A stretch of DNA of 64,000 nucleotides from Ignavibacteria bacterium (GTDB lineage Bacteria > Bacteroidota > Ignavibacteria > UBA10030 > F1-140-MAGs086), in contig VGWC01000003.1 of the NCBI GenBank assembly GCA_016873775.1, positions 2,486 to 66,485 of the forward strand, read 5' to 3'. The notes under the pieces were generated by a model. That model did no database searches, had not been told where the DNA came from, and saw nothing but the letters and a program-made list of their open reading frames with translations. Every line of letters begins with the position of its first letter. The stretch's first letter is position 1. Positions 6,403 through 61,000 of the stretch are shown here, piece by piece. A program made the position numbers and the translations under genes.

Positions 6403-6465
6403 CTTTATCCGAACATACATAGCATTTTACTTCTGAATTTCCCAAACTATGGGAAGTCCGCATTG

Positions 6466-9400
6466 ATGTTTTTAATTTTTCTTTTCTTTCTCTTTGCAGA
6501 AAATATTTTTTCGCAGCAGGAAAGAATCTCATTACAACTGAATCATCCCATCGCACACGAACGGGATGATTCTTTTTTAAAGAGGAATCTTTCTTCCACT
6601 TCATTTCCAGAAACACTGCATATCATTGCGATTATGGTGGAGTTTCAACCGGATTCTATCGAAACAACGACAGGAAACGGACTTTTTGATACCTCTCATT
6701 CAACAAAAAAAATAATTGATGCTCCTCCGCACGACTCAATATATTTTGACGACCATTTACTGTTTGCTAAAAATTATTTTTGGAAAGTGTCAAACAATAA
6801 ACTCTTTATCGAATATCAGTTGTGCGATTCGGTAATACGTTTGCAAAAACCGATGCGAAGATATTCACCTTTGAAGTCGAGTGAGAGATATTTTCAACTC
6901 GATACATTAATGCTTGAAGCGTGGAGTCGAGCAGATTCGTTCATCAATTTTTTGCAGTATGATTCCAACAACACAGCATTTATTCTTTTTCACGCCGGAG
7001 TTGGTCGCGATATTGATTTGGCAAGCACATTCGGTTATGATCCACGACCGTTCGACATTCCTACGATTTATCGCAGTTTGAAAAGTTTGCAGAAAAATTT
7101 CGGCGATGATTATCTTGGCATACCTGTCGAGAACGGAACGTATCATATAAAAAATTCTCTCATTCTTCCCGAAACCGAAAGCAGATATTTGCCTTCATCG
7201 TTTGGCGGTGATGTGTTTGTACAATTCGGTTTGAACGGAATGTTATGCTCGAATATCGGAAGTCACCTCGGTTTGCCGGATTTGTTCAACACGAAAAACG
7301 GGCGTTCCGGAATTGGTCGTTTCGGTTTGATGGATGGCGAAGGAATTTTTGCGTGGAACGGATATTTTCCTCCCGAACCAATGGCGTGGGAGAAATATTT
7401 TCTTGGATGGCTCGAACCGAAAACAATTCTAGCATCGCGCAATGAAATTTCACTTCCCGCAGTTTCGTTGAATGAAGAAAAAGATTCAGTACTACGAATT
7501 CCGATTTCAGGGAAAGAATATTTTCTTGTGGAAAATAGAATTCGTGATGCGAAGAAAGACAGCACGATTGTTTGGATGCGGCAAGGGCCAAATAGAGACA
7601 TAGTTCGTAAAGCATTTTGGCGCGACACAACAGGATTTTCTTCGACAAATCAAGATTCACTTTACGGAACAATTCTCGACGTGGATGAATTCGATTTTAG
7701 TTTGCCCGGCGGTTTTGATGAAGACCACAACTGGTATAACGGCGGCATCCTCGTATGGCATATTGATGAAAACGTGATAGAAGAAAAATACGCGACGAAT
7801 GAAATTAATGCGGATGTAAATCATCGCGGTGTGGATTTGGAACAAGCAAATGGAGCGCAGGATATTGGCGAAGTGTTGAATACCGTGTTTGGCGCAGTAA
7901 TCGGAAGCGGAAGCGCGTTTGATTTTTGGTTCGAAAATAATCCGTTGCGTATGAAGAAAAAATTCTCCGATGATTTTACGCCGACATCGTTTCCCAATTC
8001 CAAAAGCAACGATGGAGCGAACTCGCATATTTCATTGACGAATTTTTCTTTACGCGATTCGGTTATGACATTCGATGTAAAAATTGGTGATGACGAAATA
8101 CAACCGCTTGCAGGATTTCCGAAATATGTTGGCGAACAGTTTGGTAAAAATTCTGTGCGTGTTGCCGATTTGGATAATGACGGAGAAAATGAAATTGTTG
8201 TTGTAACGAATGGAGTTATTTCCGCTCAAGCAATTGATACAGTAGATTGGGGAAAAACTACATCAAAATCAAAAGTTTATGCGTGGAATTTTGACGGAAC
8301 AAAAGTTCTTGCTACGGGAAATATAAATGGTTTGTTTACTCAACTTCCTTCTCCGTCATTTGTTACTTCGGTAATATGTTCTTTACATACAACTTCAAAT
8401 AAAATTATTGTTGCAAGCAGAAATACTTTACAAGTTTTCAACAATGAAGACAACAATAGCGATGGATTTGCAGATACGTTATTTACCAAAACTTTTTCAA
8501 GAAATATTGTTGCTTCGCCTTCGGTTTCAGATTCTGTAATTGCTTTACCTGCTGCAAATGGGGATGTTTATGCAATTAGATTGAGACAAAATACTGTTGA
8601 TTCAACGAGATTACTTAATGATACAACCGATAACTATACTGGTTTTTATTCAATTTATAAAGAATCAAATACGTTTTTCTTTTCTACATATAAAGGATTG
8701 CTATTCGAGTTTAATGTGAATAATGACGGAATTGGCTTTCACACTACTGCCGGTTCAATTCAGGTAAATAAAATTCTATCAAACCCTATTGTTGTAGGAA
8801 ATCAAAATGGAAAGTTAATTGTTGCGTCAGATGATGGAACAATTTATTTCTATAAAGGATTTGTTGATGTTGTTTTACCCGGTTATCGAGGAATTGTAGA
8901 TGGTTTTCCAATCTCAACCAACGATTCAATTTCTTCTTCTCCCATCTTTGCCGACATCAACAACGATGGTCAACGCGACATTGTTGTTGTAAGCGGAACA
9001 AAAATATTTGCGTTCAATGCAAATGGTTCGTTGCTCGATTATTTTCCGATTCAAACAACTTCGACAACACGATTTCTTGCACAACCGCTTGCCGCCGATG
9101 TTGATGGAAACGGAAAGATTGATATTGTGTGTGTTTCGCAAGAAGGATTGGTATTTGCGTATGATAGTCGCGGAAAAATGTTGAGCGGATTTCCGTTGTT
9201 GAGCGGAAAAAATAATGGCGCAACACCGGCAATTTCTTTATACCAAGATACGATTGCGCTTGTCGTTGCTTCCGATGATGGCAATGTGTATGCGTGGAAA
9301 ACCGGAACTGTTAAGCCAGGTTTGTGGAAATCCGAATGGACGCAATTTCAACACGACGCGCAGGGCTCAGGATATATTGATGCGCCGCTCGTGTCTCATC

Positions 9401-9699
9401 CGATTTCCAATTCCTTTTTTCCGAAAGAACGTGCATACAATTATCCCAATCCCGCGTACGATAACACGACAACGATTCGTTACTATTTGAAAGACAATGC
9501 AACAGTGAGCATAAAAATTTTCGACCTTGCCGGCGATTTGGTGGAAGAAATAAAAAATCCTCCCGGCGTTGGCGGCTTCGATAATGAAGTGGTATGGAAC
9601 GTTGCAAACATTCAAAGTGGTGTATATTTTGCGCATATTGAAGCAAAAGGCGCAGCGCAAACGGGCGAAACGATAATTAAGATTGCGGTTGTTAAATGA
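6466..9699 (+). CDS. T9SS cargo protein: M6 (InhA)-like domain with degenerate active site + FG-GAP/VCBS beta-propeller repeats + T9SS C-terminal sorting domain
   Basis: Signal peptide MFLIFLFFLFAENIFSQQ. M6-like blocks (ILFHAGVGRD, GSHLGLPDLF, GILVWHIDEN, GVDLEQANGAQD). FG-GAP-like DLDNDGENEIVVV, ADINNDGQRDIVVV, ADVDGNGKIDIVCV. CTD YNYPNPAYDNTTTIRYYL...SGVYFAHIEA. Confidence 0.7.
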   Translation: MFLIFLFFLFAENIFSQQERISLQLNHPIAHERDDSFLKRNLSSTSFPETLHIIAIMVEFQPDSIETTTGNGLFDTSHSTKKIIDAPPHDSIYFDDHLLFAKNYFWKVSNNKLFIEYQLCDSVIRLQKPMRRYSPLKSSERYFQLDTLMLEAWSRADSFINFLQYDSNNTAFILFHAGVGRDIDLASTFGYDPRPFDIPTIYRSLKSLQKNFGDDYLGIPVENGTYHIKNSLILPETESRYLPSSFGGDVFVQFGLNGMLCSNIGSHLGLPDLFNTKNGRSGIGRFGLMDGEGIFAWNGYFPPEPMAWEKYFLGWLEPKTILASRNEISLPAVSLNEEKDSVLRIPISGKEYFLVENRIRDAKKDSTIVWMRQGPNRDIVRKAFWRDTTGFSSTNQDSLYGTILDVDEFDFSLPGGFDEDHNWYNGGILVWHIDENVIEEKYATNEINADVNHRGVDLEQANGAQDIGEVLNTVFGAVIGSGSAFDFWFENNPLRMKKKFSDDFTPTSFPNSKSNDGANSHISLTNFSLRDSVMTFDVKIGDDEIQPLAGFPKYVGEQFGKNSVRVADLDNDGENEIVVVTNGVISAQAIDTVDWGKTTSKSKVYAWNFDGTKVLATGNINGLFTQLPSPSFVTSVICSLHTTSNKIIVASRNTLQVFNNEDNNSDGFADTLFTKTFSRNIVASPSVSDSVIALPAANGDVYAIRLRQNTVDSTRLLNDTTDNYTGFYSIYKESNTFFFSTYKGLLFEFNVNNDGIGFHTTAGSIQVNKILSNPIVVGNQNGKLIVASDDGTIYFYKGFVDVVLPGYRGIVDGFPISTNDSISSSPIFADINNDGQRDIVVVSGTKIFAFNANGSLLDYFPIQTTSTTRFLAQPLAADVDGNGKIDIVCVSQEGLVFAYDSRGKMLSGFPLLSGKNNGATPAISLYQDTIALVVASDDGNVYAWKTGTVKPGLWKSEWTQFQHDAQGSGYIDAPLVSHPISNSFFPKERAYNYPNPAYDNTTTIRYYLKDNATVSIKIFDLAGDLVEEIKNPPGVGGFDNEVVWNVANIQSGVYFAHIEAKGAAQTGETIIKIAVVK

Positions 9700-12600
9700 G
9701 TTTCAAGTTACGAGTTGCGAGTTGCGAGTTACGAATGACCAATGACAAATTACAGATAACTGTTATCTGTTATTGGTTGTTTGTTATTTTGGCATCTTTA
9801 AAAACTAAAAGTTTATCATTTAACATCAGCGATAATTTGCGCAATCTACGGGAAACAGTCTCCCGCAGATTACGCAGATGTTCGCGGAAATTTTTTTTTG
9901 GAGTGTTCATTAGTAATATTTTTTTACTGCTTCTTTTCATTTTTAACAATCGGGCAAACAAACGAGCAAACAATATTTTGCTCTATGCTCTATGCTCTTT
10001 GCTTTTACTTTCATCCTCTAATCTCTATTCTCAATTCGACGATTTCTATCATCCCGAACTCGAATGGAAAACAATTGAAACAAAACATTTTTTCGTTCAT
10101 TATCATACGGGAACAGAACGAACTGCAAAAACCATTGCAAAAATCGCAGAAGAGATTTATGTTCCCATTACGTCGCTCTACCATCACGAACCCGACCAAA
10201 AAATTTCTTTTGTAGTAAAAGACTTCGATGATTATGCAAATGGCGCCGCTTATTTTTATGATAACAAAATAGAAATCTGGGCAACATCGCTTGATTTTGA
10301 TTTACGCGGTTCGCATAATTGGCTGCGCAATGTTGTAACGCACGAGTTCACGCATATCATTCAAATTCAAACGGCGATGAAGTTCGGAAGAAAAGTTCCG
10401 GCGTTTTATTTTCAATGGCTCGGTTACGAAGAAGAACGCCGCAACGATGTGTTGTACGGTTTTCCGAATGTGATTGCATCGTATCCGATTTCGGGATTTA
10501 TTGTGCCGAGTTGGTTTGCAGAAGGAGTTGCGCAATATAATCGTCCCGAACTTTCGTATGATAAATGGGATGCGCATCGCGATATGATTTTGCGAATGTA
10601 TGCTCTCGATAGCAATATGCTTACGTGGAATGAAATGTCGGTGTTCGGAAAAACGAGTTTGGGAAACGAATCATCGTACAATGCAGGATTTAATTTCGTG
10701 CGATACATCAGCGAGAAGTACGGGCAAGATGTTGTAGAAAGAATTTCTCGCTCGCTTTCGAAATTTTCGACAATTACGATTGACAAAGCGATTGAAGATG
10801 CAACGGGAAAAAATGGGGAAGAAGTGTATAATGAATGGAAACAACATTTACAATCTTCATACGGTGAACGAACAGAAGCACTCCGTCAACAGTTGGTGGA
10901 AGGAAAAATTATTACCGATGTCGGTTTTGGAAATTTCTATCCACAATTTTCTCCTGATGGTGGAATGCTCGCGTACATTTCCAACAAAGAAGCAGATTAT
11001 TTTGGTTTGTCATCGTTCTATCTTTACGATGTCGATAAGAAGGAAGAAAAATTATTAGTCAGCGGAGTTCGTTCAAACTTTTCATGGTTTCCCGATGGAA
11101 AGAAAATTATTTACTCGAAAACAACTTCTGATAATAAACATTGGTCGAAGCAGCATGATTTATATGTGTACGATATTGAGAAGGAAGATGAAACACGTTT
11201 CTCGTACGGTTGGCGAGCAAATTCTCCGTCTGTTTCTCCCGATGGAAAAATGATTGCGTTTGTTGCAGGAAGTGATGGAACAATAAATTTATACACAAGT
11301 GATAGCGACGGAAAAAATTTTAAACGTAGAACAAATTATTCCAACGGTGAACAAGTGTATAATCCCAAATGGTCTCCCGATGGAAAAAAAATTCTTTTCG
11401 ATTATTCAATTAAAGATGGAAGAGATGTTGCGGTGTTGAACGTTGAAAATGATTCCCTCGAGTTTTTGTTTGCAACAAGTTTTGATGAACGCAATGCTGT
11501 GTTTTCTCCCGATGGTCATAAAATTATTTTTGCGTGCGATAAAACTGGAATTTTCAATTTGTATGAATACAATTTCGAAACAAAATCCACAACGCAATTG
11601 ACGAATGTTCTCGGCGGCGCATTTATGCCTTCGGTGAATGAAAAAAATCAACTTGCATTTGCTTCTTATACTTCCAGCGGATATAAAATTTCTTGGTTCG
11701 ATTCGTTGCAAAATATTTCTGCAGAAAATAATTCTTATGTGAAAGAAGAAAATAAATCATCATCGTTTCTTCTTGCATTAAAAGAAAAATCGGCGAACAT
11801 TGATTGGGAAAAAATTCGTTCATTTGATGATGCGAATTTATCGGAACCGAAATCGCGCACGTATAAAAATATTTTTACTTCAATGACGTTTTATCCTTTT
11901 TTCCGTTTCGATAATTACAGTGAAAAAGCGAGCGGAATAAGTTTGATAAAGCCGGGAGTGTATTTTGTTTCCAATGATGTGCTGGATAAATATGGATTGT
12001 TTGGCGGAGCGGCTATTAATACGCGATTGGAACGTGATTTGTTTTTCATTTTTGAGTATCGTGATAAAATTCCTCTCTTCTTTCAGTTGGGAATGGATCC
12101 AATTCTTTCGCTTGAGGCATACAACATTTCCCGTACAACAGAATTCACGGCGATACTTCGTCCCGATAATCCGATTCCGCTTGACTTGGATGTGTCGTTT
12201 AATCTTATTGAATTTGATGTTGTGCTGAAACAAAAATTATTTTCAGAAAATTTGGGTTGTGAATTGCGCTACACACATAGTAGATATGCGAGCGGAATTG
12301 AAACTTTCCTTTTTGACGATCCTGATGACGGCGTTTTTGACCCAATTTCTATTCCCGGTTCGCGAGAAGAATATTATGTTGGAAATGTTCTTTCGCTGCG
12401 ATGGGATTACAAAGCGATTGCACTTTCTCGGTTTATGGAAATTAATCCGAGCGGAAGAAAAATTTTTCTTCAATACGATTACGAATTTTCAAAATTCAAT
12501 CCAGAATATGTCATCGAAAAAGGCGAACTTGTACGTGTTTTTGAAGAGCCAAAATTTCAACGTGTCGAATTGAAGTGGAATGAGTACACATCACTTCCCG

Positions 12601-13076
12601 GTTGGAAACATACGTTAGCAACTTTGATTCGTGCAGGAAAAATTATCGGCGGAGTGCAAGATGATTTTTTCGATTTTTATCTTGGCGGTTTAGTCGGAAT
12701 GAAAGGATATCCGTATTATGCCATTGGTGGGAATAGCATTGCCGCTATTAACGCTACGTATCGCTTTCCAATGTGGGAGAATATGGATATTCGAGTGGCG
12801 CATTTGTATTTCGATAAACTCTATGGTGCTGTATTTTTTGATGCAGGAAATGCGTGGACAACAGGTTCTATCAAACAGCAAAAATTTCAAAGGGATATAG
12901 GAGGAGAACTTCGACTCGATGCATTTTCGTGGTATGCATTTCCGACTCGTATTTTTTTTACGGCGGCGTATGGTCTTGATGAATTTCAACGAATGACACG
13001 TAATAATAAACTTGTTACGTACGGAAAAGAGTGGCGGTTTTATTTCGGAATATTATTTGGTTTTGATTTTGACTAA
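9696..13076 (+). CDS. Outer-membrane protein: HExxH gluzincin-like domain + PD40 (TolB-like) beta-propeller repeats + C-terminal Omp85/surface-antigen-like barrel. True start uncertain.
   Basis: HEFTH at 10341-10355 with downstream FAEGVAQY. PD40-like FSPDGGMLAYIS, SVSPDGKMIAFVAGSDG, KWSPDGKKILF, FSPDGHKIIFACDKTG. Barrel-like C-terminus ending FGILFGFDFD. ATG 9696 overlaps the upstream stop (ATGA), but the first ~95 codons are repeat-encoded. Alternative starts are GTG 9903 and TTG 9978. Confidence 0.7.
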   Translation: MSFKLRVASCELRMTNDKLQITVICYWLFVILASLKTKSLSFNISDNLRNLRETVSRRLRRCSRKFFFGVFISNIFLLLLFIFNNRANKRANNILLYALCSLLLLSSSNLYSQFDDFYHPELEWKTIETKHFFVHYHTGTERTAKTIAKIAEEIYVPITSLYHHEPDQKISFVVKDFDDYANGAAYFYDNKIEIWATSLDFDLRGSHNWLRNVVTHEFTHIIQIQTAMKFGRKVPAFYFQWLGYEEERRNDVLYGFPNVIASYPISGFIVPSWFAEGVAQYNRPELSYDKWDAHRDMILRMYALDSNMLTWNEMSVFGKTSLGNESSYNAGFNFVRYISEKYGQDVVERISRSLSKFSTITIDKAIEDATGKNGEEVYNEWKQHLQSSYGERTEALRQQLVEGKIITDVGFGNFYPQFSPDGGMLAYISNKEADYFGLSSFYLYDVDKKEEKLLVSGVRSNFSWFPDGKKIIYSKTTSDNKHWSKQHDLYVYDIEKEDETRFSYGWRANSPSVSPDGKMIAFVAGSDGTINLYTSDSDGKNFKRRTNYSNGEQVYNPKWSPDGKKILFDYSIKDGRDVAVLNVENDSLEFLFATSFDERNAVFSPDGHKIIFACDKTGIFNLYEYNFETKSTTQLTNVLGGAFMPSVNEKNQLAFASYTSSGYKISWFDSLQNISAENNSYVKEENKSSSFLLALKEKSANIDWEKIRSFDDANLSEPKSRTYKNIFTSMTFYPFFRFDNYSEKASGISLIKPGVYFVSNDVLDKYGLFGGAAINTRLERDLFFIFEYRDKIPLFFQLGMDPILSLEAYNISRTTEFTAILRPDNPIPLDLDVSFNLIEFDVVLKQKLFSENLGCELRYTHSRYASGIETFLFDDPDDGVFDPISIPGSREEYYVGNVLSLRWDYKAIALSRFMEINPSGRKIFLQYDYEFSKFNPEYVIEKGELVRVFEEPKFQRVELKWNEYTSLPGWKHTLATLIRAGKIIGGVQDDFFDFYLGGLVGMKGYPYYAIGGNSIAAINATYRFPMWENMDIRVAHLYFDKLYGAVFFDAGNAWTTGSIKQQKFQRDIGGELRLDAFSWYAFPTRIFFTAAYGLDEFQRMTRNNKLVTYGKEWRFYFGILFGFDFD
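9700..9790. repeat. Heptamer-phased drifting repeat array (13 units)
   Basis: gtttcaa|gttacga|gttgcga|gttgcga|gttacga|atgacca|atgacaa|attacag|ataactg|ttatctg|ttattgg|ttgtttg|ttatttt. Contains the palindrome cagataac-t-gttatctg. Confidence 0.8.
9838..9876. repeat. Imperfect palindromic element
   Basis: tgcgcaatctacggga (9838-9853) pairs with tcccgcagattacgca (9861-9876), 14/16 bp, 7-nt loop. Confidence 0.6.
9980..10049. repeat. Heptamer-phased drifting repeat array (10 units), encodes the putative signal peptide of the downstream protein
   Basis: gctctat|gctctat|gctcttt|gctttta|ctttcat|cctctaa|tctctat|tctcaat|tcgacga|tttctat. Confidence 0.75.
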
Positions 13077-42421: not shown

Positions 42422-43591
42422 TTGAGTAAACGTTTAAAAGTTGTCGTAGTTGACCCATTGTGTCAAGGTCCTTATTACGATTACTATTTGTGTTCTGCGC
42501 TACAACGTGCAGGAATGGATGTAGAACTATGGACGCGTGAACCGAAATTTTTAAAAGATTATTTTTCGCATACTGCGTTTCGCGTTCGGAAACTAACAAG
42601 ATTTTCTCGAGCATTATTCGGCGAGTCGTCATTTGGAAAATTCTTCAAATACCTTGAGTTATTGACGATAGATTTTTTTTTCTACTTCATAAAATGTTTG
42701 CGGAGCGATGTTGTACATATTCAGTGGTTCTCTCCTCCTCCGATGTTGTATGTAGAGCGATATGTATATTCGCTCTTGAAAAATTTTGACATTCGACTTG
42801 TTTTTACGGCTCACAATGTATTTCCTCATTCAACACCGTATCAATTTAAAAAAGAACTGCAAAAGATTTATTCAACGTTTCATACCATAACGGTAATGAA
42901 TACGTATAGCAAAACGATATTGAGCAACGAATTTTCACTGGCAACGACAAACGTCGAAATCATTCCACACGGTCCAATTTTTCACGACTTTATACGACTT
43001 TCTCAAACACAATCAAAGCAGAAACTCAATATTGATGTACGGATGAACGTTATTCTGTTTCAGGGTTTTTTGCGTGCGTACAAAGGAATTGATTTTTTAT
43101 TGGAAACATTTTCTCGGTTTCTCCAATTGCATCCCAATTCGATACTCGTGCTTGCCGGAATGGGAAAATCGGATTATGTTCTGGATGTGAAAAAATCTAT
43201 TTCCCGTTTATCTATTCCTGAAACCAATATTCTTGCTCCGTTTCAGTACGTAACTCCGAATCAAATTCCTATATATTACGCCTCTGCAGATGTCGTTGTT
43301 TTTCCCTATGAGCATATTTATCAAAGCGGTGCGTTATTTACTGCGATGAGTTTTAAGAAAGCAGTAATTGCGACAGACGTTGGTGGATTTGCTGAACTGA
43401 TTGAAAATAATATCAATGGGAAATTAATAGAATATGGAAACACGGAACAATTTATTTCTGCATTGCAGGAAATAATTTTTTCAAAAGAAAAAAAAGAAAT
43501 GTTTGAAAAAAATGCTTTTCATAAAGTAACCAATGAATGTTCGTGGGAAATGATTGCAGAGAAAACAATCAACGTGTATCGTAAACCGTGA
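42422..43591 (+). CDS. Glycosyltransferase family 4
   Basis: C-terminal GT-B block ADVVVFPYEHIYQSGALFTAMSFKKAVIATDVGGFAELIENNINGKL. TTG start. Confidence 0.7.
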   Translation: MSKRLKVVVVDPLCQGPYYDYYLCSALQRAGMDVELWTREPKFLKDYFSHTAFRVRKLTRFSRALFGESSFGKFFKYLELLTIDFFFYFIKCLRSDVVHIQWFSPPPMLYVERYVYSLLKNFDIRLVFTAHNVFPHSTPYQFKKELQKIYSTFHTITVMNTYSKTILSNEFSLATTNVEIIPHGPIFHDFIRLSQTQSKQKLNIDVRMNVILFQGFLRAYKGIDFLLETFSRFLQLHPNSILVLAGMGKSDYVLDVKKSISRLSIPETNILAPFQYVTPNQIPIYYASADVVVFPYEHIYQSGALFTAMSFKKAVIATDVGGFAELIENNINGKLIEYGNTEQFISALQEIIFSKEKKEMFEKNAFHKVTNECSWEMIAEKTINVYRKP

Positions 43592-43649
43592 GTCGTGAGT
43601 CGTGAATCTCCAATTTCTACCCTCAACACTTGAACCTTCAAACATCGAA
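43587..43649. repeat. Heptamer-phased drifting array (9 units) spanning the GT4 stop and the uvrA start
   Basis: cgtgagt|cgtgagt|cgtgaat|ctccaat|ttctacc|ctcaaca|cttgaac|cttcaaa|catcgaa. TGA 43589-43591 and GTG 43602 both lie inside it. Confidence 0.75.
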
Positions 43650-46598
43650 CGCAATGAAACCATTCTCGTCAAAGGTGCGCGTGTTCATAACTTAAAAAAC
43701 ATAGATGTCGCAATTCCGCGCAATCAACTTACAGTAATTACAGGGCTTTCCGGTTCCGGAAAATCATCACTCGCGTTTGATACAATTTATGCAGAAGGAC
43801 AACGTCGTTATGTCGAAACGCTTTCCGCTTATGCGCGTCAATTTCTCGGAACATTTGAGCGACCTGATGTTGATGATATTCAAGGTTTATCACCATCAAT
43901 TGCGATTGAGCAAAAAATAGTTAGTCAGAACCCACGTTCAACTGTTGGAACTGTTACTGGGATTTACGATTTTCTTCGTGTGTTGTTTGCTCGCGCAGGG
44001 ACGCAATTTTGTGTGAACTGCGATAAAGAAGTTTCAAAACAAACGTCCGATGAAATTATTGATAAGTTGATGCAGCACAATGTAGGAACAAAATTGACAA
44101 TTCTTGCGCCTGTTGTTCGCGGAAGAAAAGGACATTATCGGGAATTGTTTGAAAGTTTGACGAAAAACGGATTTGCACGTATTCGTGTTGACGGCGAAAT
44201 TCGTGAACTCGAAAAAGTTTTACAAGTTGACCGATACAAAATTCATAACATCGAAGTTGTGATTGATAGAATTGTCATGAAATACGATATTCGTTCTCGT
44301 ATCGCTGATGCAGTTGAACTTGCATTACGAATCGGCGAAGGGATACTCTTTGCAGAAGTTCACGGCCTCGATATGCTGTTCTCGAAACTGCTTTCGTGTG
44401 CAACGTGTGGAAAAAGTTACGAAGAACCTGCCCCGAATACATTTTCGTTTAATTCACCGTACGGCGCATGTGCTTCGTGCGATGGACTTGGGGAGCATAA
44501 GGATTTTGATGAACGGTTGATTATTCCAAACGTCAAACGTTCTATCAATGAAGGTGGAATTGCTCCATTCGGAAAGCCGCGCTCAACGTGGATTTTCAGT
44601 CAATTAAAAGCGGTGGTTGCCCATTATGGTTTCACTTTCGATACGCCGTTGCATAAAATATTGAGTAAGTGCCGCGAAGTTGTATTCTTCGGCTCAAAAG
44701 AGAAGTTTGAAGTTCCGTACGTATTTTCTTCGGGAAGACAAGTAACATACTCACATCGCTTTGATGGAATTTTTACCATTCTCAAACATCAATATTCAAA
44801 TTCTCCAACTATTCGAATGCGCGAACGTGCTGAAGCGTATATGCAAACAACGATGTGCAGCGAATGTAACGGCGGACGGTTGAAAGGAGAAAGTCTTGCA
44901 ATAAAACTCGTTGATGTGAAAACTGAACAGCGATATACCATTGACGATGTTGTAAAAATTTCTCTCAGCGATGCAAGAGAATTATTGCGAACGCTTCAAC
45001 TTTCCAAGCGTAAAAAATTGATTGCAGAATTACTGTTGAAAGAAATCAATGAGCGTTTGGATTTTTTGCTCAATCTTGGTCTCAATTATCTTTCACTCGA
45101 TAGAACAGCTCGAACACTTTCCGGCGGTGAATCGCAGCGTATTCGTCTTGCAACGCAAATCGGAGCGCAATTGCGTGGAGTGCTCTATGTCCTCGATGAA
45201 CCGAGTATCGGTTTGCATCAACGCGACAATTTACAATTGATTCAATCGTTGCAATCATTGTGCGAATTAGGTAATACGATCATCGTAGTAGAACACGATA
45301 AAGAGATTATGGAACGCGCGGATTACATTATTGATTTAGGCCCCGGCGCGGGCGAACACGGAGGGAAAATTGTTGCACTCGGAAAACCAAATGCGTTACA
45401 AGTTGCGAGTTACGAGTTACAAGTTTCAAGTAGAGTGCAGAGAGTAGAAAGCAGAGAAACAACTTACGATGTACGATTTACAGATTTCGATTCTCCATCC
45501 ATAAACCACAAGCCACAAGCAACAAACCATCACTCTCTAACGTTTGAATATTTAGCAAACTCCCGACTCATTGACGTTCCAAAAGTGCGACGCAAAGGAA
45601 ACGGAAAATTTTTTTCGTTAAAAGAATGTTCTGGAAACAATTTGAAAAAGATTGATGTAAGATTTCCTTTGGGAACATTTATATGTGTAACAGGAGTCAG
45701 CGGTTCCGGAAAATCTACGCTTGTTTCCGAAACGTTGTTCAGAATTTTATCACGCGAGATTTATCAATCGAAAGAAGTTCCGCTTCCGTATAAAAAAGTT
45801 TCCGGAATTGATAACATTGATAAAGTAATTGAAATTGACCAATCGCCAATCGGAAGAACGCCGCGCTCCAATCCTGCAACATACACGGGATTGTTCACAT
45901 TCATTCGCGATTTATTTGCTCAACTTCCCGAATCGAAAATTCGCGGATACAAACCCGGAAGGTTTAGTTTCAACGTGAAAGGTGGACGATGTGAAAACTG
46001 TGAAGGAGATGGCATTAAAAAAATTGAAATGAATTTTCTTCCTGATGTATATGTTACCTGTGAAGTCTGCAACGGCAAACGCTACAACAGAGAAACGCTC
46101 GAAGTTCTTTACAAAAGTAAATCCATCGCCGAAGTTCTGGAAATGACAGTGGAAGATGCGCTTGCGTTTTTCGATGAACATTTGCCGATGAAACGCAAAT
46201 TACAAACGCTCGACAATGTTGGACTTGGCTATATTCGTTTGGGACAGCAAGCAACAACACTTTCCGGCGGTGAAGCGCAACGTGTAAAACTTTCTTCCGA
46301 ACTTTCCAAAATCGGAACGGGAAAAACGTTGTACATTCTCGACGAACCAACAACGGGATTACACTTTGAAGATATTCGCGTTCTGCTTTCCGTTTTGAAT
46401 AAACTTGTGGATAAAGGAAACACGATTATCGTCATCGAACACAATCTCGATGTCATAAAAACCGCCGATTATATTATTGATTTAGGTCCCGAAGGAGGCA
46501 ATGGTGGAGGAAGAATTATAGCCAAAGGAACTCCCGAAGAAATTATAACTGTGAAAGAAAGTTATACGGGAAAGTTTTTGAAAGAGGAATTGAACTGA
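43602..46598 (+). CDS. uvrA: Excinuclease ABC subunit A
   Basis: GARVHNLKNIDV, two ABC ATPase modules (GLSGSGKSSL, GVSGSGKSTL, LSGGESQR, LSGGEAQR), zinc-finger cysteines. 998 aa including a repeat-encoded insert. Confidence 0.9.
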   Translation: MNLQFLPSTLEPSNIERNETILVKGARVHNLKNIDVAIPRNQLTVITGLSGSGKSSLAFDTIYAEGQRRYVETLSAYARQFLGTFERPDVDDIQGLSPSIAIEQKIVSQNPRSTVGTVTGIYDFLRVLFARAGTQFCVNCDKEVSKQTSDEIIDKLMQHNVGTKLTILAPVVRGRKGHYRELFESLTKNGFARIRVDGEIRELEKVLQVDRYKIHNIEVVIDRIVMKYDIRSRIADAVELALRIGEGILFAEVHGLDMLFSKLLSCATCGKSYEEPAPNTFSFNSPYGACASCDGLGEHKDFDERLIIPNVKRSINEGGIAPFGKPRSTWIFSQLKAVVAHYGFTFDTPLHKILSKCREVVFFGSKEKFEVPYVFSSGRQVTYSHRFDGIFTILKHQYSNSPTIRMRERAEAYMQTTMCSECNGGRLKGESLAIKLVDVKTEQRYTIDDVVKISLSDARELLRTLQLSKRKKLIAELLLKEINERLDFLLNLGLNYLSLDRTARTLSGGESQRIRLATQIGAQLRGVLYVLDEPSIGLHQRDNLQLIQSLQSLCELGNTIIVVEHDKEIMERADYIIDLGPGAGEHGGKIVALGKPNALQVASYELQVSSRVQRVESRETTYDVRFTDFDSPSINHKPQATNHHSLTFEYLANSRLIDVPKVRRKGNGKFFSLKECSGNNLKKIDVRFPLGTFICVTGVSGSGKSTLVSETLFRILSREIYQSKEVPLPYKKVSGIDNIDKVIEIDQSPIGRTPRSNPATYTGLFTFIRDLFAQLPESKIRGYKPGRFSFNVKGGRCENCEGDGIKKIEMNFLPDVYVTCEVCNGKRYNRETLEVLYKSKSIAEVLEMTVEDALAFFDEHLPMKRKLQTLDNVGLGYIRLGQQATTLSGGEAQRVKLSSELSKIGTGKTLYILDEPTTGLHFEDIRVLLSVLNKLVDKGNTIIVIEHNLDVIKTADYIIDLGPEGGNGGGRIIAKGTPEEIITVKESYTGKFLKEELN
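45395..45534. repeat. Heptamer-phased drifting array (~20 units) in frame inside uvrA
   Basis: gttacaa|gttgcga|gttacga|gttacaa|gtttcaa|gtagagt|gcagaga|gtagaaa|gcagaga|aacaact|tacgatg|tacgatt|tacagat|ttcgatt|ctccatc|cataaac|cacaagc|cacaagc|aacaaac|catcact. Confidence 0.8.
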
Positions 46599-55389: not shown

Positions 55390-55439
55390 AAAATATTCTA
55401 ATTTTAACTTTTGTAAATATAGTAATTTGTTCGTAGTCA

Positions 55440-55481
55440 GTAGTCAGAAATCAGTTGTCCGTAGTACGGAAAAGAGAAATT
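55440..55481. repeat. Heptamer-phased array in the thrA / polA divergent spacer
   Basis: ttcgtag|tcagtag|tcagaaa|tcagttg|tccgtag|tacggaa. Confidence 0.7.
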
Positions 55482-55565: not shown

Positions 55566-58541
55566 ATGGAAACTACACTTCCCAGATTATATTTACTCGA
55601 TGGAATGGCGATTGCTTATCGTTCGTATTATGCGTTCATTACCAATCCGCTCCGAACATCAAAAGGCGAAAACGTCAGCGCATTGTTTGGTTTTGCAAAT
55701 ACGTTATTCAAAATTTTAGATAGCGACAAACCGGAATATTTCGCCGTCGTGTTCGATACGAAAGAGCCGACGTTTCGTCATAAAATGTATGATGCATACA
55801 AAGCGACGCGACAAGAAATTCCAGAAGAACTTATTCCTCAACTCGACCAGTTGCGGGATTTGGTTCGCGCATTCAACATTTCCGTTCTCGAAATGCACGG
55901 TTACGAAGCCGATGATATTATGGGAACGCTTGCTCGCAAAGCGGAGAAAGAAAAAATTCTCACGTATCTTGTTACCGGCGATAAAGATTTTATGCAACTA
56001 ATTTCGCCGTTTATCAAAATGTTGAAGCCGGGAAATGCAAACGCTGAATGGGAAATTATTGATAATGCCCACGTGCTGGAAAAATTCGGCGTACCTCCTT
56101 CGCAGGTGATTGATGTGCTTGGTTTGATTGGCGATAAAGTGGACAATGTTCCCGGCATTCCCGGCGTTGGCGAGAAAACTGCGATTCCACTCGTGCAGCA
56201 ATTCGGCAGTATTGAAAACATTCTTACAAATATTGATAAAATTGAAAAAGCAGCGGTGAAAAAAAAATTTGAAGAACACAAAGCGCTTGCATTGCTTTCC
56301 AAAGAACTCGTAACGATTGATATCAATGTTCCTCTTGATGTAGATATTCACGAACTTAAAGCGAAAGAAAGAGATGTTGAACAACTTACAAAGTTGTTCA
56401 CGCAGTTTGAGTTTAAGAATCTTCTGAAAAAAGTTACGAGTAACGTGTTACGAATTACAAATGAGAAAATAGATAACTCAAAACTTGTAACTCGTAACTC
56501 GCAACTTGAAACAGACGAAGATATCTCTTTCGATGTTGCAAAATTTGAAAAGACGACTGATATTACTAATGATGAACATAAGTATCATTTAGTTACGACG
56601 GAAAAAGATTTTTTGAAATTGTGTGAGAAACTTTCCAAGGCAAAACAGTTTGTATTCGATATGGAAACAACTTCGGAAAATGCGTTGGATGCGGACGTTG
56701 TCGGCGTATCGTTTTGTATGAAAGAGAGGGAAGCGTATTACGTTGCGGTTGAGTTTGTTCCTTCAATTGAGAAAGATGGCGGAGAAGAAATACAAGATTT
56801 ATTTTCGACCAAGAAGAAAGTAGTTAGTAGTCAGAAGTCAGTAGATTCAAAATCGCCCACTCCACATCTCACATCTCAAATTACTATTGAGTCTGTGAAG
56901 AAATATCTCCAACCAGTTTTTGCAAACGAAAAGATTTTGAAGATTGCACAGAATGCAAAGTACGATGCGCATGTGTTGGCGAATTATGGGATTGTAACAA
57001 AGGGAGAAATTTTCGATACGATGATTGCGCATTTTGTTTTTCGGAATAACTCGCGGCACGGATTGGATTCGCTTGCGTTGGAATTTCTCAATTACAAAAT
57101 GATTTCGTTTGATGATTTGCTCGGAACGGGACGAGAGAAAAAAAAGATTTGGGAAATTCCGTTCGAAAACATTTGCGAATACTCGTGTGAAGATGCTGAT
57201 ATGACGATGCGATTGTATAATGTGTTGAAAGAAAAATTGAAGAATGAAAAAACCACTAATTCTGTCATTCCGAGCGAAGCGAGAAATCTCCTTACAGTTT
57301 GCAACAATGTTGATTTCCCACTCGTTTTTGTTCTTTCTGAAATGGAACGCGCGGGACAAAAACTCGATACAAAATTTTTGAGTGAGTTATCGAAAGAATT
57401 GGAACGCAATCTTAAAAACATCGAGCAAGACATTTACCAATTCGCCGGAGAAACGTTCAACATCAATTCGCCGAAACAATTGCAAGATATTTTATTTGTA
57501 AAACTCGGATTGAAATCGTCGCGGAAAACGAAAACAGGATTTTCTACGGCAGAAGATGTGTTGGAAGATTTGCGCAACGAACATCCGCTCATCGAAAAAC
57601 TTTTGGAACACCGTACAATGTACAAACTCAAGTCCACGTATGTTGATGCGTTGCCAAATCTCATCAATAAAAAAACGGGACGCGTGCACACTTCCTACAA
57701 TCAAGTTGTTGCCGCGACTGGAAGATTATCGAGCAGCGAACCGAATTTGCAAAACATTCCGATTCGTACAGAAGTCAGTCGTTCGATTCGGAAAGCGTTT
57801 ATTACGGATGACGGTTGGAGAATTCTTTCCGCAGATTATTCGCAAATCGAACTGCGCATTATGGCGGATATGAGCGGCGATGAGGGATTGCAAACAGCAT
57901 TTCGGAATGGAGAAGATATTCATAGAGCAACAGCGGAGAAATTATTTGCGAGTTCTTCGATTGATACTCGCGAACAACGACGGCGTGCTAAGGAAGTGAA
58001 TTTCGGGATTATGTATGGTATGGGACCGTTTGGCTTATCGCAGAGTTTGCAAATCCCACAGAATGAAGCGAAGGAGATTATTACGAAATACTTTGAGCGA
58101 TTTCCGAAAGTGAAACAGTTCATTGAGGATACGAAAGCATATTGTCGGCGCACGGGTTATGTAGAAACACTGCTCGGTCGGCGACGGTATCTTCCTGATA
58201 TTAATAGTAAGAATGGAAGTATTCGCTCGAATGCAGAACGACAAGCGATTAACGCGCCGATTCAGGGAACTGCGGCGGATATGATTAAGTTGGCGATGAT
58301 AAAAATCTATGAGAAAGTTGCGAGTTACGAGTCGCGAGTTACGAGTTATGAATCACGAATTACGAACCACGAGTTACGAATGTTGCTGCAAGTTCACGAC
58401 GAACTTGTTTTTGAAGTTGCGGAAAGCGTAGAGCATAGAGCAAAGAGTTTAATTTTGGATTGTATGAAAAATGCTTTGCCGCTTTCCGTTCCGGTGGAAG
58501 TGGAAATTGGAAGCGGGAAGAATTGGTTTGATGCGCATTGA
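55566..58541 (+). CDS. polA: DNA polymerase I
   Basis: 5'-nuclease (LYLLDGMAIAYRSYYA), 3'-5' exo (FDMETTS, QNAKYD), polymerase motifs (SADYSQIELRI, RRRAKEVNFGIMYG, LLQVHDELVFE). 991 aa including four repeat-encoded inserts. Confidence 0.9.
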   Translation: METTLPRLYLLDGMAIAYRSYYAFITNPLRTSKGENVSALFGFANTLFKILDSDKPEYFAVVFDTKEPTFRHKMYDAYKATRQEIPEELIPQLDQLRDLVRAFNISVLEMHGYEADDIMGTLARKAEKEKILTYLVTGDKDFMQLISPFIKMLKPGNANAEWEIIDNAHVLEKFGVPPSQVIDVLGLIGDKVDNVPGIPGVGEKTAIPLVQQFGSIENILTNIDKIEKAAVKKKFEEHKALALLSKELVTIDINVPLDVDIHELKAKERDVEQLTKLFTQFEFKNLLKKVTSNVLRITNEKIDNSKLVTRNSQLETDEDISFDVAKFEKTTDITNDEHKYHLVTTEKDFLKLCEKLSKAKQFVFDMETTSENALDADVVGVSFCMKEREAYYVAVEFVPSIEKDGGEEIQDLFSTKKKVVSSQKSVDSKSPTPHLTSQITIESVKKYLQPVFANEKILKIAQNAKYDAHVLANYGIVTKGEIFDTMIAHFVFRNNSRHGLDSLALEFLNYKMISFDDLLGTGREKKKIWEIPFENICEYSCEDADMTMRLYNVLKEKLKNEKTTNSVIPSEARNLLTVCNNVDFPLVFVLSEMERAGQKLDTKFLSELSKELERNLKNIEQDIYQFAGETFNINSPKQLQDILFVKLGLKSSRKTKTGFSTAEDVLEDLRNEHPLIEKLLEHRTMYKLKSTYVDALPNLINKKTGRVHTSYNQVVAATGRLSSSEPNLQNIPIRTEVSRSIRKAFITDDGWRILSADYSQIELRIMADMSGDEGLQTAFRNGEDIHRATAEKLFASSSIDTREQRRRAKEVNFGIMYGMGPFGLSQSLQIPQNEAKEIITKYFERFPKVKQFIEDTKAYCRRTGYVETLLGRRRYLPDINSKNGSIRSNAERQAINAPIQGTAADMIKLAMIKIYEKVASYESRVTSYESRITNHELRMLLQVHDELVFEVAESVEHRAKSLILDCMKNALPLSVPVEVEIGSGKNWFDAH
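56433..56516. repeat. Heptamer-phased palindromic array (12 units) in frame in the polA 5'-nuclease/exo linker
   Basis: gttacga|gtaacgt|gttacga|attacaa|atgagaa|aatagat|aactcaa|aacttgt|aactcgt|aactcgc|aacttga|aacagac. Arms 56431-56455 and 56483-56507 are 20/25 complementary. Confidence 0.8.
56820..56882. repeat. Heptamer-phased array (9 units) in frame in the polA 3'-5' exo domain
   Basis: gtagtta|gtagtca|gaagtca|gtagatt|caaaatc|gcccact|ccacatc|tcacatc|tcaaatt. Related to the 55440-55481 array. Confidence 0.75.
57264..57290. repeat. 'gtcattccgagcgaagcgagaaatctc' word in frame in polA (encodes VIPSEARNL)
   Basis: Shares gtcattccg...g(a/g)aatctc ends with the intergenic copy at 58601-58638, and gtcattcc with 22693-22766. 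Confidence 0.65.
58317..58379. repeat. Heptamer array (9 units) in frame in polA just before motif C
   Basis: gttgcga|gttacga|gtcgcga|gttacga|gttatga|atcacga|attacga|accacga|gttacga. Encodes the 7-aa periodic VASYESR VTSYESR ITNHELR. Confidence 0.85.
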
Positions 58542-58600: not shown

Positions 58601-58638
58601 GTCATTCCGAAACCACATTTATGTGGATGAGGAATCTC
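58601..58638. repeat. 'gtcattccga...gaggaatctc' hairpin-family element
   Basis: gtcattccgaaaccacatttatgtggatgaggaatctc with inner ccacat/atgtgg. Confidence 0.65.
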
Positions 58639-60924: not shown

Positions 60925-60990
60925 TTAACTACGAATGACAAATTACTAATTACCAATGATAGTCATTAGTAATTTGTCATTGGTCATTTG
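60925..60990. repeat. Heptamer-phased palindromic element between tatC and the polyprenyl synthase gene
   Basis: Perfect 16-bp stem atgacaaattactaat (60935-60950) / attagtaatttgtcat (60965-60980). 60969-60988 is the exact reverse complement of 9734-9753. Confidence 0.8.
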
Positions 60991-61000
60991 TTGGTGTAAT

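Follow-up and report, generated by a model that had tools for sequence, protein, structure and literature searches.

The polA gene in a 64,000-nucleotide stretch of DNA from an Ignavibacteria bacterium (contig VGWC01000003.1; the whole stretch is referred to as the window) carries arrays of tandem seven-nucleotide (heptamer) units at three sites. The arrays are real and in frame, lie in disordered segments of the encoded DNA polymerase I (Pol I), and change rapidly between species. They are probably heptanucleotide simple-sequence repeats that are tolerated in permissive loops of the enzyme, and the host genome belongs to an Ignavibacteria lineage that is prone to heptamer arrays. All counts given for this genome refer to the 64-kb window. 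The polA product comprises a 5'-nuclease, a 3'-5' exonuclease, and a family A polymerase domain (Pfam 5_3_exonuc_N, 5_3_exonuc, DNA_pol_A_exo1, and DNA_pol_A).

A self-match scan of the window detected 19 segments with a period of 7, while each of the other periods from 4 to 12 gave between 0 and 3. In 100 Markov simulations of the window, the number of period-7 segments was 1.2 on average and 4 at most; at a score of at least 12, there were 12 segments compared with a simulated mean of 0.05. Period 7 is the sole enriched tandem period in the window, and the same excess is present in every related locus examined and in 120 loci of many phyla. Chance and assembly artefact are ruled out as sources of the arrays by the simulations and by the identity of the arrays in three independent assemblies. 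The 19 segments fall into about a dozen loci: polA has four and uvrA two or three, one is at the junction of the open reading frames (ORFs) at 6463-9699 and 9696-13076, and the others lie between genes. The polA gene, which makes up 4.6% of the window, contains 6 of the 19 segments, with 2-3 more in uvrA; clear internal arrays were not found in the other window genes that were checked. Approximately 7 segments are wholly intergenic and 3 more are at gene edges, in a window of which about 9% is noncoding (ORF-based estimate); i.e., the heptamer arrays are concentrated in the noncoding DNA.

Head-to-tail 7-nt units in polA are represented by four period-7 rows in the output of Tandem Repeats Finder (TRF): 56474-56506 (4.7 copies), 56819-56844 (3.7 copies), 56863-56878 (2.3 copies), and 58316-58379 (9.1 copies). 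The original prediction, made from the nucleotide sequence, had placed three arrays of 12, 9, and 9 units at 56433-56516, 56820-56882, and 58317-58379. Its observation is partly confirmed and its interpretation partly supported. All three sites begin in codon phase 0 and yield the peptides that were given, and array 3 is a plain 9-unit array, but TRF recognizes only shorter sub-arrays in arrays 1 and 2. Array 1, which is located in the linker joining the 5'-nuclease and exonuclease domains, consists of 4 forward units, a spacer, and 4-5 inverted units rather than of 12 units in a row. Array 2 is not a 9-unit array either; it is composed of two short unlike arrays, 2a and 2b, which are separated by a spacer and belong to two different unit families. 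Because of these spacers and mixed units, the counts of 12 and 9 hinge on the chosen start and stop. Array 2a is in a variable loop of the 3'-5' exonuclease domain, where relatives have (AGAAGTC)x4, and the units of array 2b are related to the AAATCCG and CAAATCC arrays of the two closest relatives. Array 3 encodes VASYESR VTSYESR ITNHELR directly ahead of motif C (QVHDE) and is also scored by TRF at a period of 21, above its period-7 score. The palindrome that had been proposed for array 1 is real: the arms (56433-56460 and 56485-56512) are 28 nt long, 79% complementary, and 24 nt apart, with a predicted RNA fold of -23.8 kcal/mol (z = -5.4), and the counterpart in the sister species L001 has a z of -5.6.

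The closest homologs of this PolA are from Ignavibacteriales together with other Ignavibacteria-type proteins. Identity to the window protein reaches 80% and 78% in two relatives and is at most 59% in every other homolog. The arrays are common only to these two relatives, in altered form; the inserts are absent from the orthologs at or below 59% identity, from Taq, and from Klenow, so the ortholog alignment agrees with the prediction of lineage-specific inserts whose protein sequence is unconserved. In an alignment of 29 sequences, the three array sites are the hypervariable indel sites of PolA. Loop lengths were measured from anchor to anchor in up to 120 homologs. The loop at site 3 has 33 residues in the window and 21 residues in 98 of 117 homologs, and that at site 1 has 51 residues compared with a median of 32. 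The array-2 loop (AYYVAV to SQITIE) has 41 residues compared with 8 in Klenow, in keeping with the shorter E. coli loop that had been noted for this site, and the short loop expected in Taq at array 3 appears as a 14-residue gap in the Taq alignment. Most Ignavibacteria orthologs, like Taq and Klenow, are shorter than the window PolA at the array sites. The net extra length is approximately 19 residues at site 1 relative to orthologs at or below 59% identity and approximately 12 residues at site 3 relative to array-free orthologs. The AlphaFold2 model of PolA has a mean predicted local distance difference test (pLDDT) score of 81, and the score falls below 50 at residues 293-326, 401-433, and 926-933, which correspond to the three arrays and are flanked by confident domains; the model thus places the inserts in loops and linkers, as anticipated. 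Taken together, these data support the arrays as lineage-specific in-frame inserts in loops and linkers, not as conserved protein sequence.

Other Ignavibacteria lineages, in which PolA is only about 55% identical and the genomes range from 37 to 52% G+C, have nucleotide heptamer arrays of their own in the same loops, built from different units. Locus L005 has two such arrays, CAGAGGT x13 ahead of motif C and another in the exonuclease loop; the PolA-loop arrays of the further loci are composed of TCCATCC/TCAATCC x14 (L006), AAAATGA/AAAATTA (L007), AGAAGTC x4 followed by CGAAATC x3 (L001), and CAAATCC x7 (L004). Strong peptide self-repeats among the 120 PolA homologs occur only at a lag of 7 and at its double, 14. 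In other phyla, in-frame heptamer arrays are present in the genuine genes for LigA, TyrRS, HypF, and cytochrome bd.

The DNA of site 3 was compared in eight orthologs. Array 3 consists of GTTACGA x9 in the window, GTTTCGA x6 in P0002, and ATTAGGA x6 in P0003; i.e., all of the units shift in concert between species, and the array grows from 42 nt in the latter two to 63 nt in the window, a gap of exactly 21 nt. P0009 is longer than P0047 by 42 nt, and the array or loop lengths of P0084, P0066, and P0106 are 84, 105, and 147 nt, with differences of 21 and 42 nt. Each of the four independent length changes, which are distributed over three clades, is a multiple of 21 nt, an outcome with a chance of about (1/7)^4 on the assumption that in-frame indels are spread evenly over multiples of 3. 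The short loop of P0047 already contains AAAATNA units, of which P0009 has six more, which suggests growth in place and not delivery from outside. At site 2, P0028 and P0029 differ by a single 36-nt gap, corresponding to five units plus one base. Thus, steps in multiples of three units (3n) are common but not obligatory.

The original prediction had further stated that the unit count of every array is a multiple of three, since only 3n units keep the frame, and that selection should enrich 3n counts inside genes. The literal rule is unsupported because the net lengths at sites 1 and 3 are not multiples of 7 residues, and the clean arrays in relatives are 98, 93, 74, 55, and 47 nt long. A rough survey covered 381 arrays in heptamer-bearing loci that total about 1 Mb, with open frames standing for genes and with rounded unit counts. 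Within long open frames, 13 of 72 arrays had 3n units, compared with 81 of 309 elsewhere; the genic arrays thus showed no enrichment, and the 3n claim fails by the refutation criterion that had been set with the prediction. The 3n logic fares better for length changes than for array totals. As 7 and 3 share no factor, every frame of an array reads the same 7-residue cycle; therefore, a change other than 3n can be rescued cheaply by an indel of 1-2 nt at the edge, and the product is a disordered peptide with a 7-residue periodicity.

Frame and stop-codon filtering leave marks on the polA arrays. A perfect array of AACTCGT or GTAGTCA would give an in-frame TAA or TAG at every third unit. All three positions at which such a stop would fall in frame are mutated, i.e., to AAA (56481) and CAA (56502) at the TAA sites of the units of the array 1 right-arm type and to AAG (56835) at the TAG site of array 2a, whereas out-of-frame stop triplets are kept at 6 of 7 positions (Fisher p about 0.03).

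In a comparison of seven genes shared by L001 and the window, nearly every larger indel is a heptamer array or a small nonheptamer repeat. The heptamer-array indels comprise 17 and 11 residues in uvrA, and 7 and 4 + 1 residues in polA, whereas the small-repeat indels comprise 22 residues in thrA and 25 residues in polA, with a RFARNDN motif in thrC. In uvrA, L001 has a shorter insert at the same site as the window, composed of AATGACN units instead of the GTTRCGA units of the window, and these two unit families adjoin each other in the 9699-9789 array. In polA itself, the three independent assemblies differ by one single-nucleotide polymorphism, at 56000, with the same arrays.

Two features in polA were overlooked by the original prediction: a period-7 stretch at 58419-58447 and a small in-frame repeat at 57265-57288. 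The former, a possible fourth array, has a period-7 match of 0.60 in the window and 0.63 in L001 compared with 0.23-0.31 in distant orthologs. It lies within a confidently modelled helix after motif C and has the same length as in orthologs; its unit family recurs on the other strand at 9979-10003 and also in L001 and L007. If this array is real, structured coding sequence can be overwritten by heptamer arrays. The small repeat, TCATTCCGA...GAGAAATC, is located within a 12-residue insert that links the exonuclease and polymerase domains, is absent from the orthologs at or below 59% identity, and forms a loop (residues 561-574) in the model. A second copy is present at 58602-58636, just downstream of polA (2 found compared with 0.01 expected). 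The repeat ends are TCATTCCGA...GAGRAATC, with a variable stem-loop between them, and relatives have in-frame RFARNDN and RLRGNDK peptides of this type in thrC, thrA, and polA.

The remaining arrays of the window are listed in Table 1. The intergenic array upstream of polA is of the same unit family as array 2a and is identical in the three assemblies. The array at the start of uvrA had been described as 9 units; three CGTGAGT units are present at 43587-43608, but the remainder is weakly periodic, with about 57% unit-to-unit identity by hand count. The only possible start of uvrA (43602-46598) is the GTG at 43602, which is within the (CGTGAGT)x3 that also spans the stop codon of the upstream ORF. 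The mirror arms of the 91-nt array at 9699-9789, at the junction of two long ORFs, are 9734-9760 and 9762-9788, and those of the hairpin at 60931-60991 are 29 nt long and 83% complementary, with a loop of 3 nt. The peptidase-like ORF at 9696-13076 contains TGCTCTA and CTCTAAT arrays in an apparent hydrophobic N-terminal leader (region 9699-10037). Known RNA families and tRNAs were not found at the hairpins of the window, and at the intergenic hairpins, no terminator or promoter consensus exceeded shuffled controls.

Table 1. Coordinates of polA, its arrays, and the other repeats of the 64-kb window.
Feature	Coordinates	Strand	Description
Gene-junction array	9699-9789	+	(AGTTRCG)x5, (AATGACN)x3 into mirror arm; fold z = -6.3
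uvrA-start array	43587-43649	+	(CGTGAGT)x3 clear, rest degenerate
uvrA in-frame insert	45395-45525	+	~40 residues; GTTACGA-type array (45395-45431) and CCACAAG-type array (45499-45525) at its ends
Intergenic array upstream of polA	55433-55454	+	GTAGTCA GTAGTCA GAAATCA; TRF, period-7 scan
polA (DNA polymerase I)	55566-58541	+	991 residues, reading frame intact; ORF and Pfam
Array 1, left arm	56432-56460	+	~4 GTTACGA-type units: GTTACGA GTAACGT GTTACGA ATTACAA
Array 1, loop/spacer	56461-56484	+	24 nt, A-rich, without clear repetition
Array 1, right arm	56485-56512	+	4-5 AACTCGT units (reverse-complement type), pairs with left arm
Array 2a	56819-56844	+	GTAGTTA GTAGTCA GAAGTCA GTAG; TRF, 3.7 copies
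Array 2b	56863-56881	+	CACATCT-type units, 2.3-2.7 copies; unit family unlike 2a
Small nonheptamer repeat	57265-57288	+	TCATTCCGA...GAGAAATC; in frame in polA, peptide VIPSEARNL
Array 3	58316-58379	+	9 GTTACGA-type units (TRF, 9.1 copies, 73% matches)
Possible fourth polA array	58419-58447	+	GCGGAAA GCGTAGA GCATAGA GCAAAGA; period-7 scan
Array directly after polA stop codon	58542-58578	+	CATTTTA type; TRF, period-7 scan
Intergenic mirror-arm hairpin	60931-60991	+	AATGACA / TGTCATT units; fold z = -5.0

The reading that we favor is that of simple-sequence repeats tolerated where the fold of Pol I permits. Unit-wise slippage or unequal exchange would create the arrays and drive their turnover, and some of them may additionally be copied in the inverted orientation, which would give mirror-image arms. 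Selection appears to keep genic arrays only in spared segments, i.e., the interdomain linker and surface loops, and only when they are free of in-frame stop codons, as the model and the mutated stop positions indicate. The downstream frame seems to be kept most often by 3-unit (21-nt) steps and may sometimes be kept by another unit number together with a compensating indel of 1-2 nt. On this reading, Pol I would gain no functional part from the arrays: their peptides and the array-1 mRNA hairpin would be by-products. Action as a present-day switch is improbable, given the degeneracy of the arrays and their stability across assemblies.

These properties place the arrays close to the heptamer long simple-sequence repeats (LSSRs) of other bacteria. 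According to Mrazek et al. (2007), as cited in PMC4679880 and PMC4692102, heptamers are the most abundant class of long simple-sequence repeats in many bacteria. Examples are the short tandemly repeated repetitive (STRR) sequences of cyanobacteria, TAACTGA of Beggiatoaceae, Cyanobacteria, and Bacteroidetes, and the GGGNATC repeats of Xanthomonas and Nostoc. The orientation of an array within a gene is restricted by the stop codons of its unit, and translation gives a 7-residue repeat (PMC4679880). The window arrays share with LSSRs the head-to-tail 7-nt units, the many arrays per genome, the enrichment of period 7 alone, the concentration in noncoding DNA, the occasional inverted pairs, the limits set by unit stop codons on orientation in genes, and the 7-residue peptide repeat. 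Unlike the known LSSRs, they occur in a host of an Ignavibacteria lineage and are built from several unit families instead of one; moreover, several in-frame arrays are present in one essential gene, and the same protein loops hold arrays of different units throughout the lineage. No paper on heptamer repeats in Ignavibacteria was found. The arrays are not cyanobacterial STRR sequences in the strict sense, given the Ignavibacteria host and the different main units. Rotating the reverse complement of TTGGTCA, which we take to be an STRR unit, gives the AATGACC unit found at 9734, and this correspondence is a lead only.

Several points weigh against this interpretation. No unit-number polymorphism was found among the three assemblies, and genic arrays were no richer in a 21-nt super-period than intergenic arrays (n = 9 compared with 65-76). 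Mirror arms that share the order of unit variants resemble copied modules more than products of independent slippage, the dispersed arms in one Chloroflexaceae genome are 85-90% alike and thus module-like, and array 1 of polA and the uvrA array have a common order of unit variants. Permissive loops account only in part for the 6 of 19 segments within polA. Slippage leaves the period of 7 without an explanation, and the tolerance of simple repeats leaves the origin of the mirror-image arms without one.

The points on the arms are in line with a different proposal, according to which ready-made mobile or copy-paste hairpins delivered array 1, and perhaps other arrays, in frame and then drifted. 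We regard this proposal as doubtful. Three loci in the window (array 1, 9734-9788, and 60931-60991) have mirror arms with strong fold scores, and inverted pairs of the same unit make up 29 of 115 neighboring array pairs among all loci examined. The arms match even in the order of unit variants and are alike between copies in one genome, and the right arm of polA array 1, read as its reverse complement, shares the order GTTGCGA-GTTACGA-GTTACAA with the uvrA array. The small palindromic repeat described above likewise occurs as an in-frame insert, in polA as well as in genes of the relatives, and a precedent is provided by the Rickettsia palindromic elements (RPEs), which are inserted in frame in housekeeping genes (PMC10969869). 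Like RPEs, array 1 is a short palindromic DNA that is in frame and encodes a peptide segment tolerated by the fold, and it is the only array with this combination of a palindrome, an in-frame position, and a tolerated surface segment, as expected of RPEs or miniature inverted-repeat transposable elements. However, RPEs are about 150 bp long, with a consensus for each family and a conserved peptide, whereas the window arms are composed of 7-nt units with unconserved loops and peptides. Neither in the window nor in the Chloroflexaceae locus L016 did we find many copies with a full-length consensus and target-site duplications; the loops and flanks differ between copies, and in the 64 kb seen, no clear target-site duplication is present, with none evident at 56432 or 56512. 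Arrays 2 and 3 lack an inverted partner, site 3 appears to have grown in place from a short array, and the hairpin, at about 80 nt, exceeds the net insert of about 57-60 nt at site 1. The arms also recall REPINs (PMC3116915), in which a short repeat and its inverted copy flank a spacer and pair into a long hairpin; REPINs are extragenic and their arms are not tandem heptamers, whereas those of the window are.

A broader version of this idea, which we consider unlikely, is that mirror-arm heptamer hairpins with 4-6 units per arm and an unconserved loop constitute a distinct cross-phylum repeat class. Such hairpins would be self-dispersing or self-templating, would settle in frame in polA, uvrA, and ligA, would remodel the same loops, and would have a mechanism of their own that sets the 7-nt register. 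The exact pattern (GTTACGA)x3 is found in at least 120 loci of very many phyla. As a special unit, however, GTTACGA was rejected: in viral contigs it had 7 matches, and two control heptamers of matched composition had 1 and 11. Its wide spread therefore reflects a general heptamer background. Positions 1-5000 of L016 (Chloroflexaceae metagenome-assembled genome [MAG] Prado088, JALONX010000048.1) contain 37 heptamer arrays, the densest cluster among the loci examined; most of them form mirror-arm hairpins, which belong to several unit families and recur every 200-400 bp. The 738-residue NAD-dependent DNA ligase of L022, a Patescibacteria MAG, contains three separate in-frame arrays, QIVNCELKIDNC, QLSIINYQLSIL, and ELRVTSYELQ, and is thus a further replication/repair gene with a heavy array load.

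It is very improbable that the 7-residue repeats are selected protein features, such as flexible tethers or interaction motifs, to which the nucleotide periodicity would be secondary. The inserts persist at the same three sites throughout Ignavibacteria, and in the model, the helix at 884-924 is extended by the first part of array 3. Yet the peptides of close relatives are wholly different (VASYESR, VSSSKFR, and IANEELG), the periodicity is one of 7 nt and not just of 21 nt, the same units are present in nearby noncoding DNA (55433 and 9699), and the model confidence at the insert residues is low. Hardly credible is a role as contingency (phase-variation) loci, in which single-unit changes would switch polA and uvrA into reversible mutator states: the arithmetic of a coding 7-nt repeat matches that of neuO of E. 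coli K1, and arrays lie in two DNA-repair genes of the window and in ligA of a Patescibacteria genome, but slippage should be suppressed by the degeneracy of the units (73% matches, and nowhere in polA three identical units in succession), polA is intact in all three assemblies, no aligned homolog appears truncated at an array, and the arrays are in mid-gene, away from the 5' end. In neuO, the AAGACTC repeat is in the 5' coding region and is ON only at 3n units, with 3 to 53 units among strains and 66% of genomes OFF (PMC13001214). The window arrays resemble it in the 7-nt repeat within a coding region and in the 7-residue peptide repeat; unlike neuO, they are degenerate, with 73-84% matches instead of near-perfect units, and the gene is always in frame. 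No unit-number polymorphism was detected, which is a weak test with three consensus assemblies only. The agreement of the assemblies and the degeneracy of the units argue against a phase-variable switch.

The feature in the window is real and ordinary in kind but a good specimen: it belongs to the heptanucleotide simple repeats, places several in-frame arrays in a single essential gene, and clearly bears the marks of frame, stop-codon, and structural filtering. Its significance lies in the entry of simple repeats into essential genes. Heptamer arrays and one other small repeat are a main source of loop-length change in the proteins of this lineage, because most of the larger length differences between housekeeping orthologs of the two sister species trace to them. 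The polA arrays provide a natural example of three filters, namely frame, stop codons, and structural tolerance, acting on a repeat whose unit length is coprime to that of a codon. For annotation, low-complexity stretches with a 7-residue period in MAG proteins are likely to be repeat-derived and not functional motifs. What could open new ground is the mirror-arm architecture, which is present across phyla.

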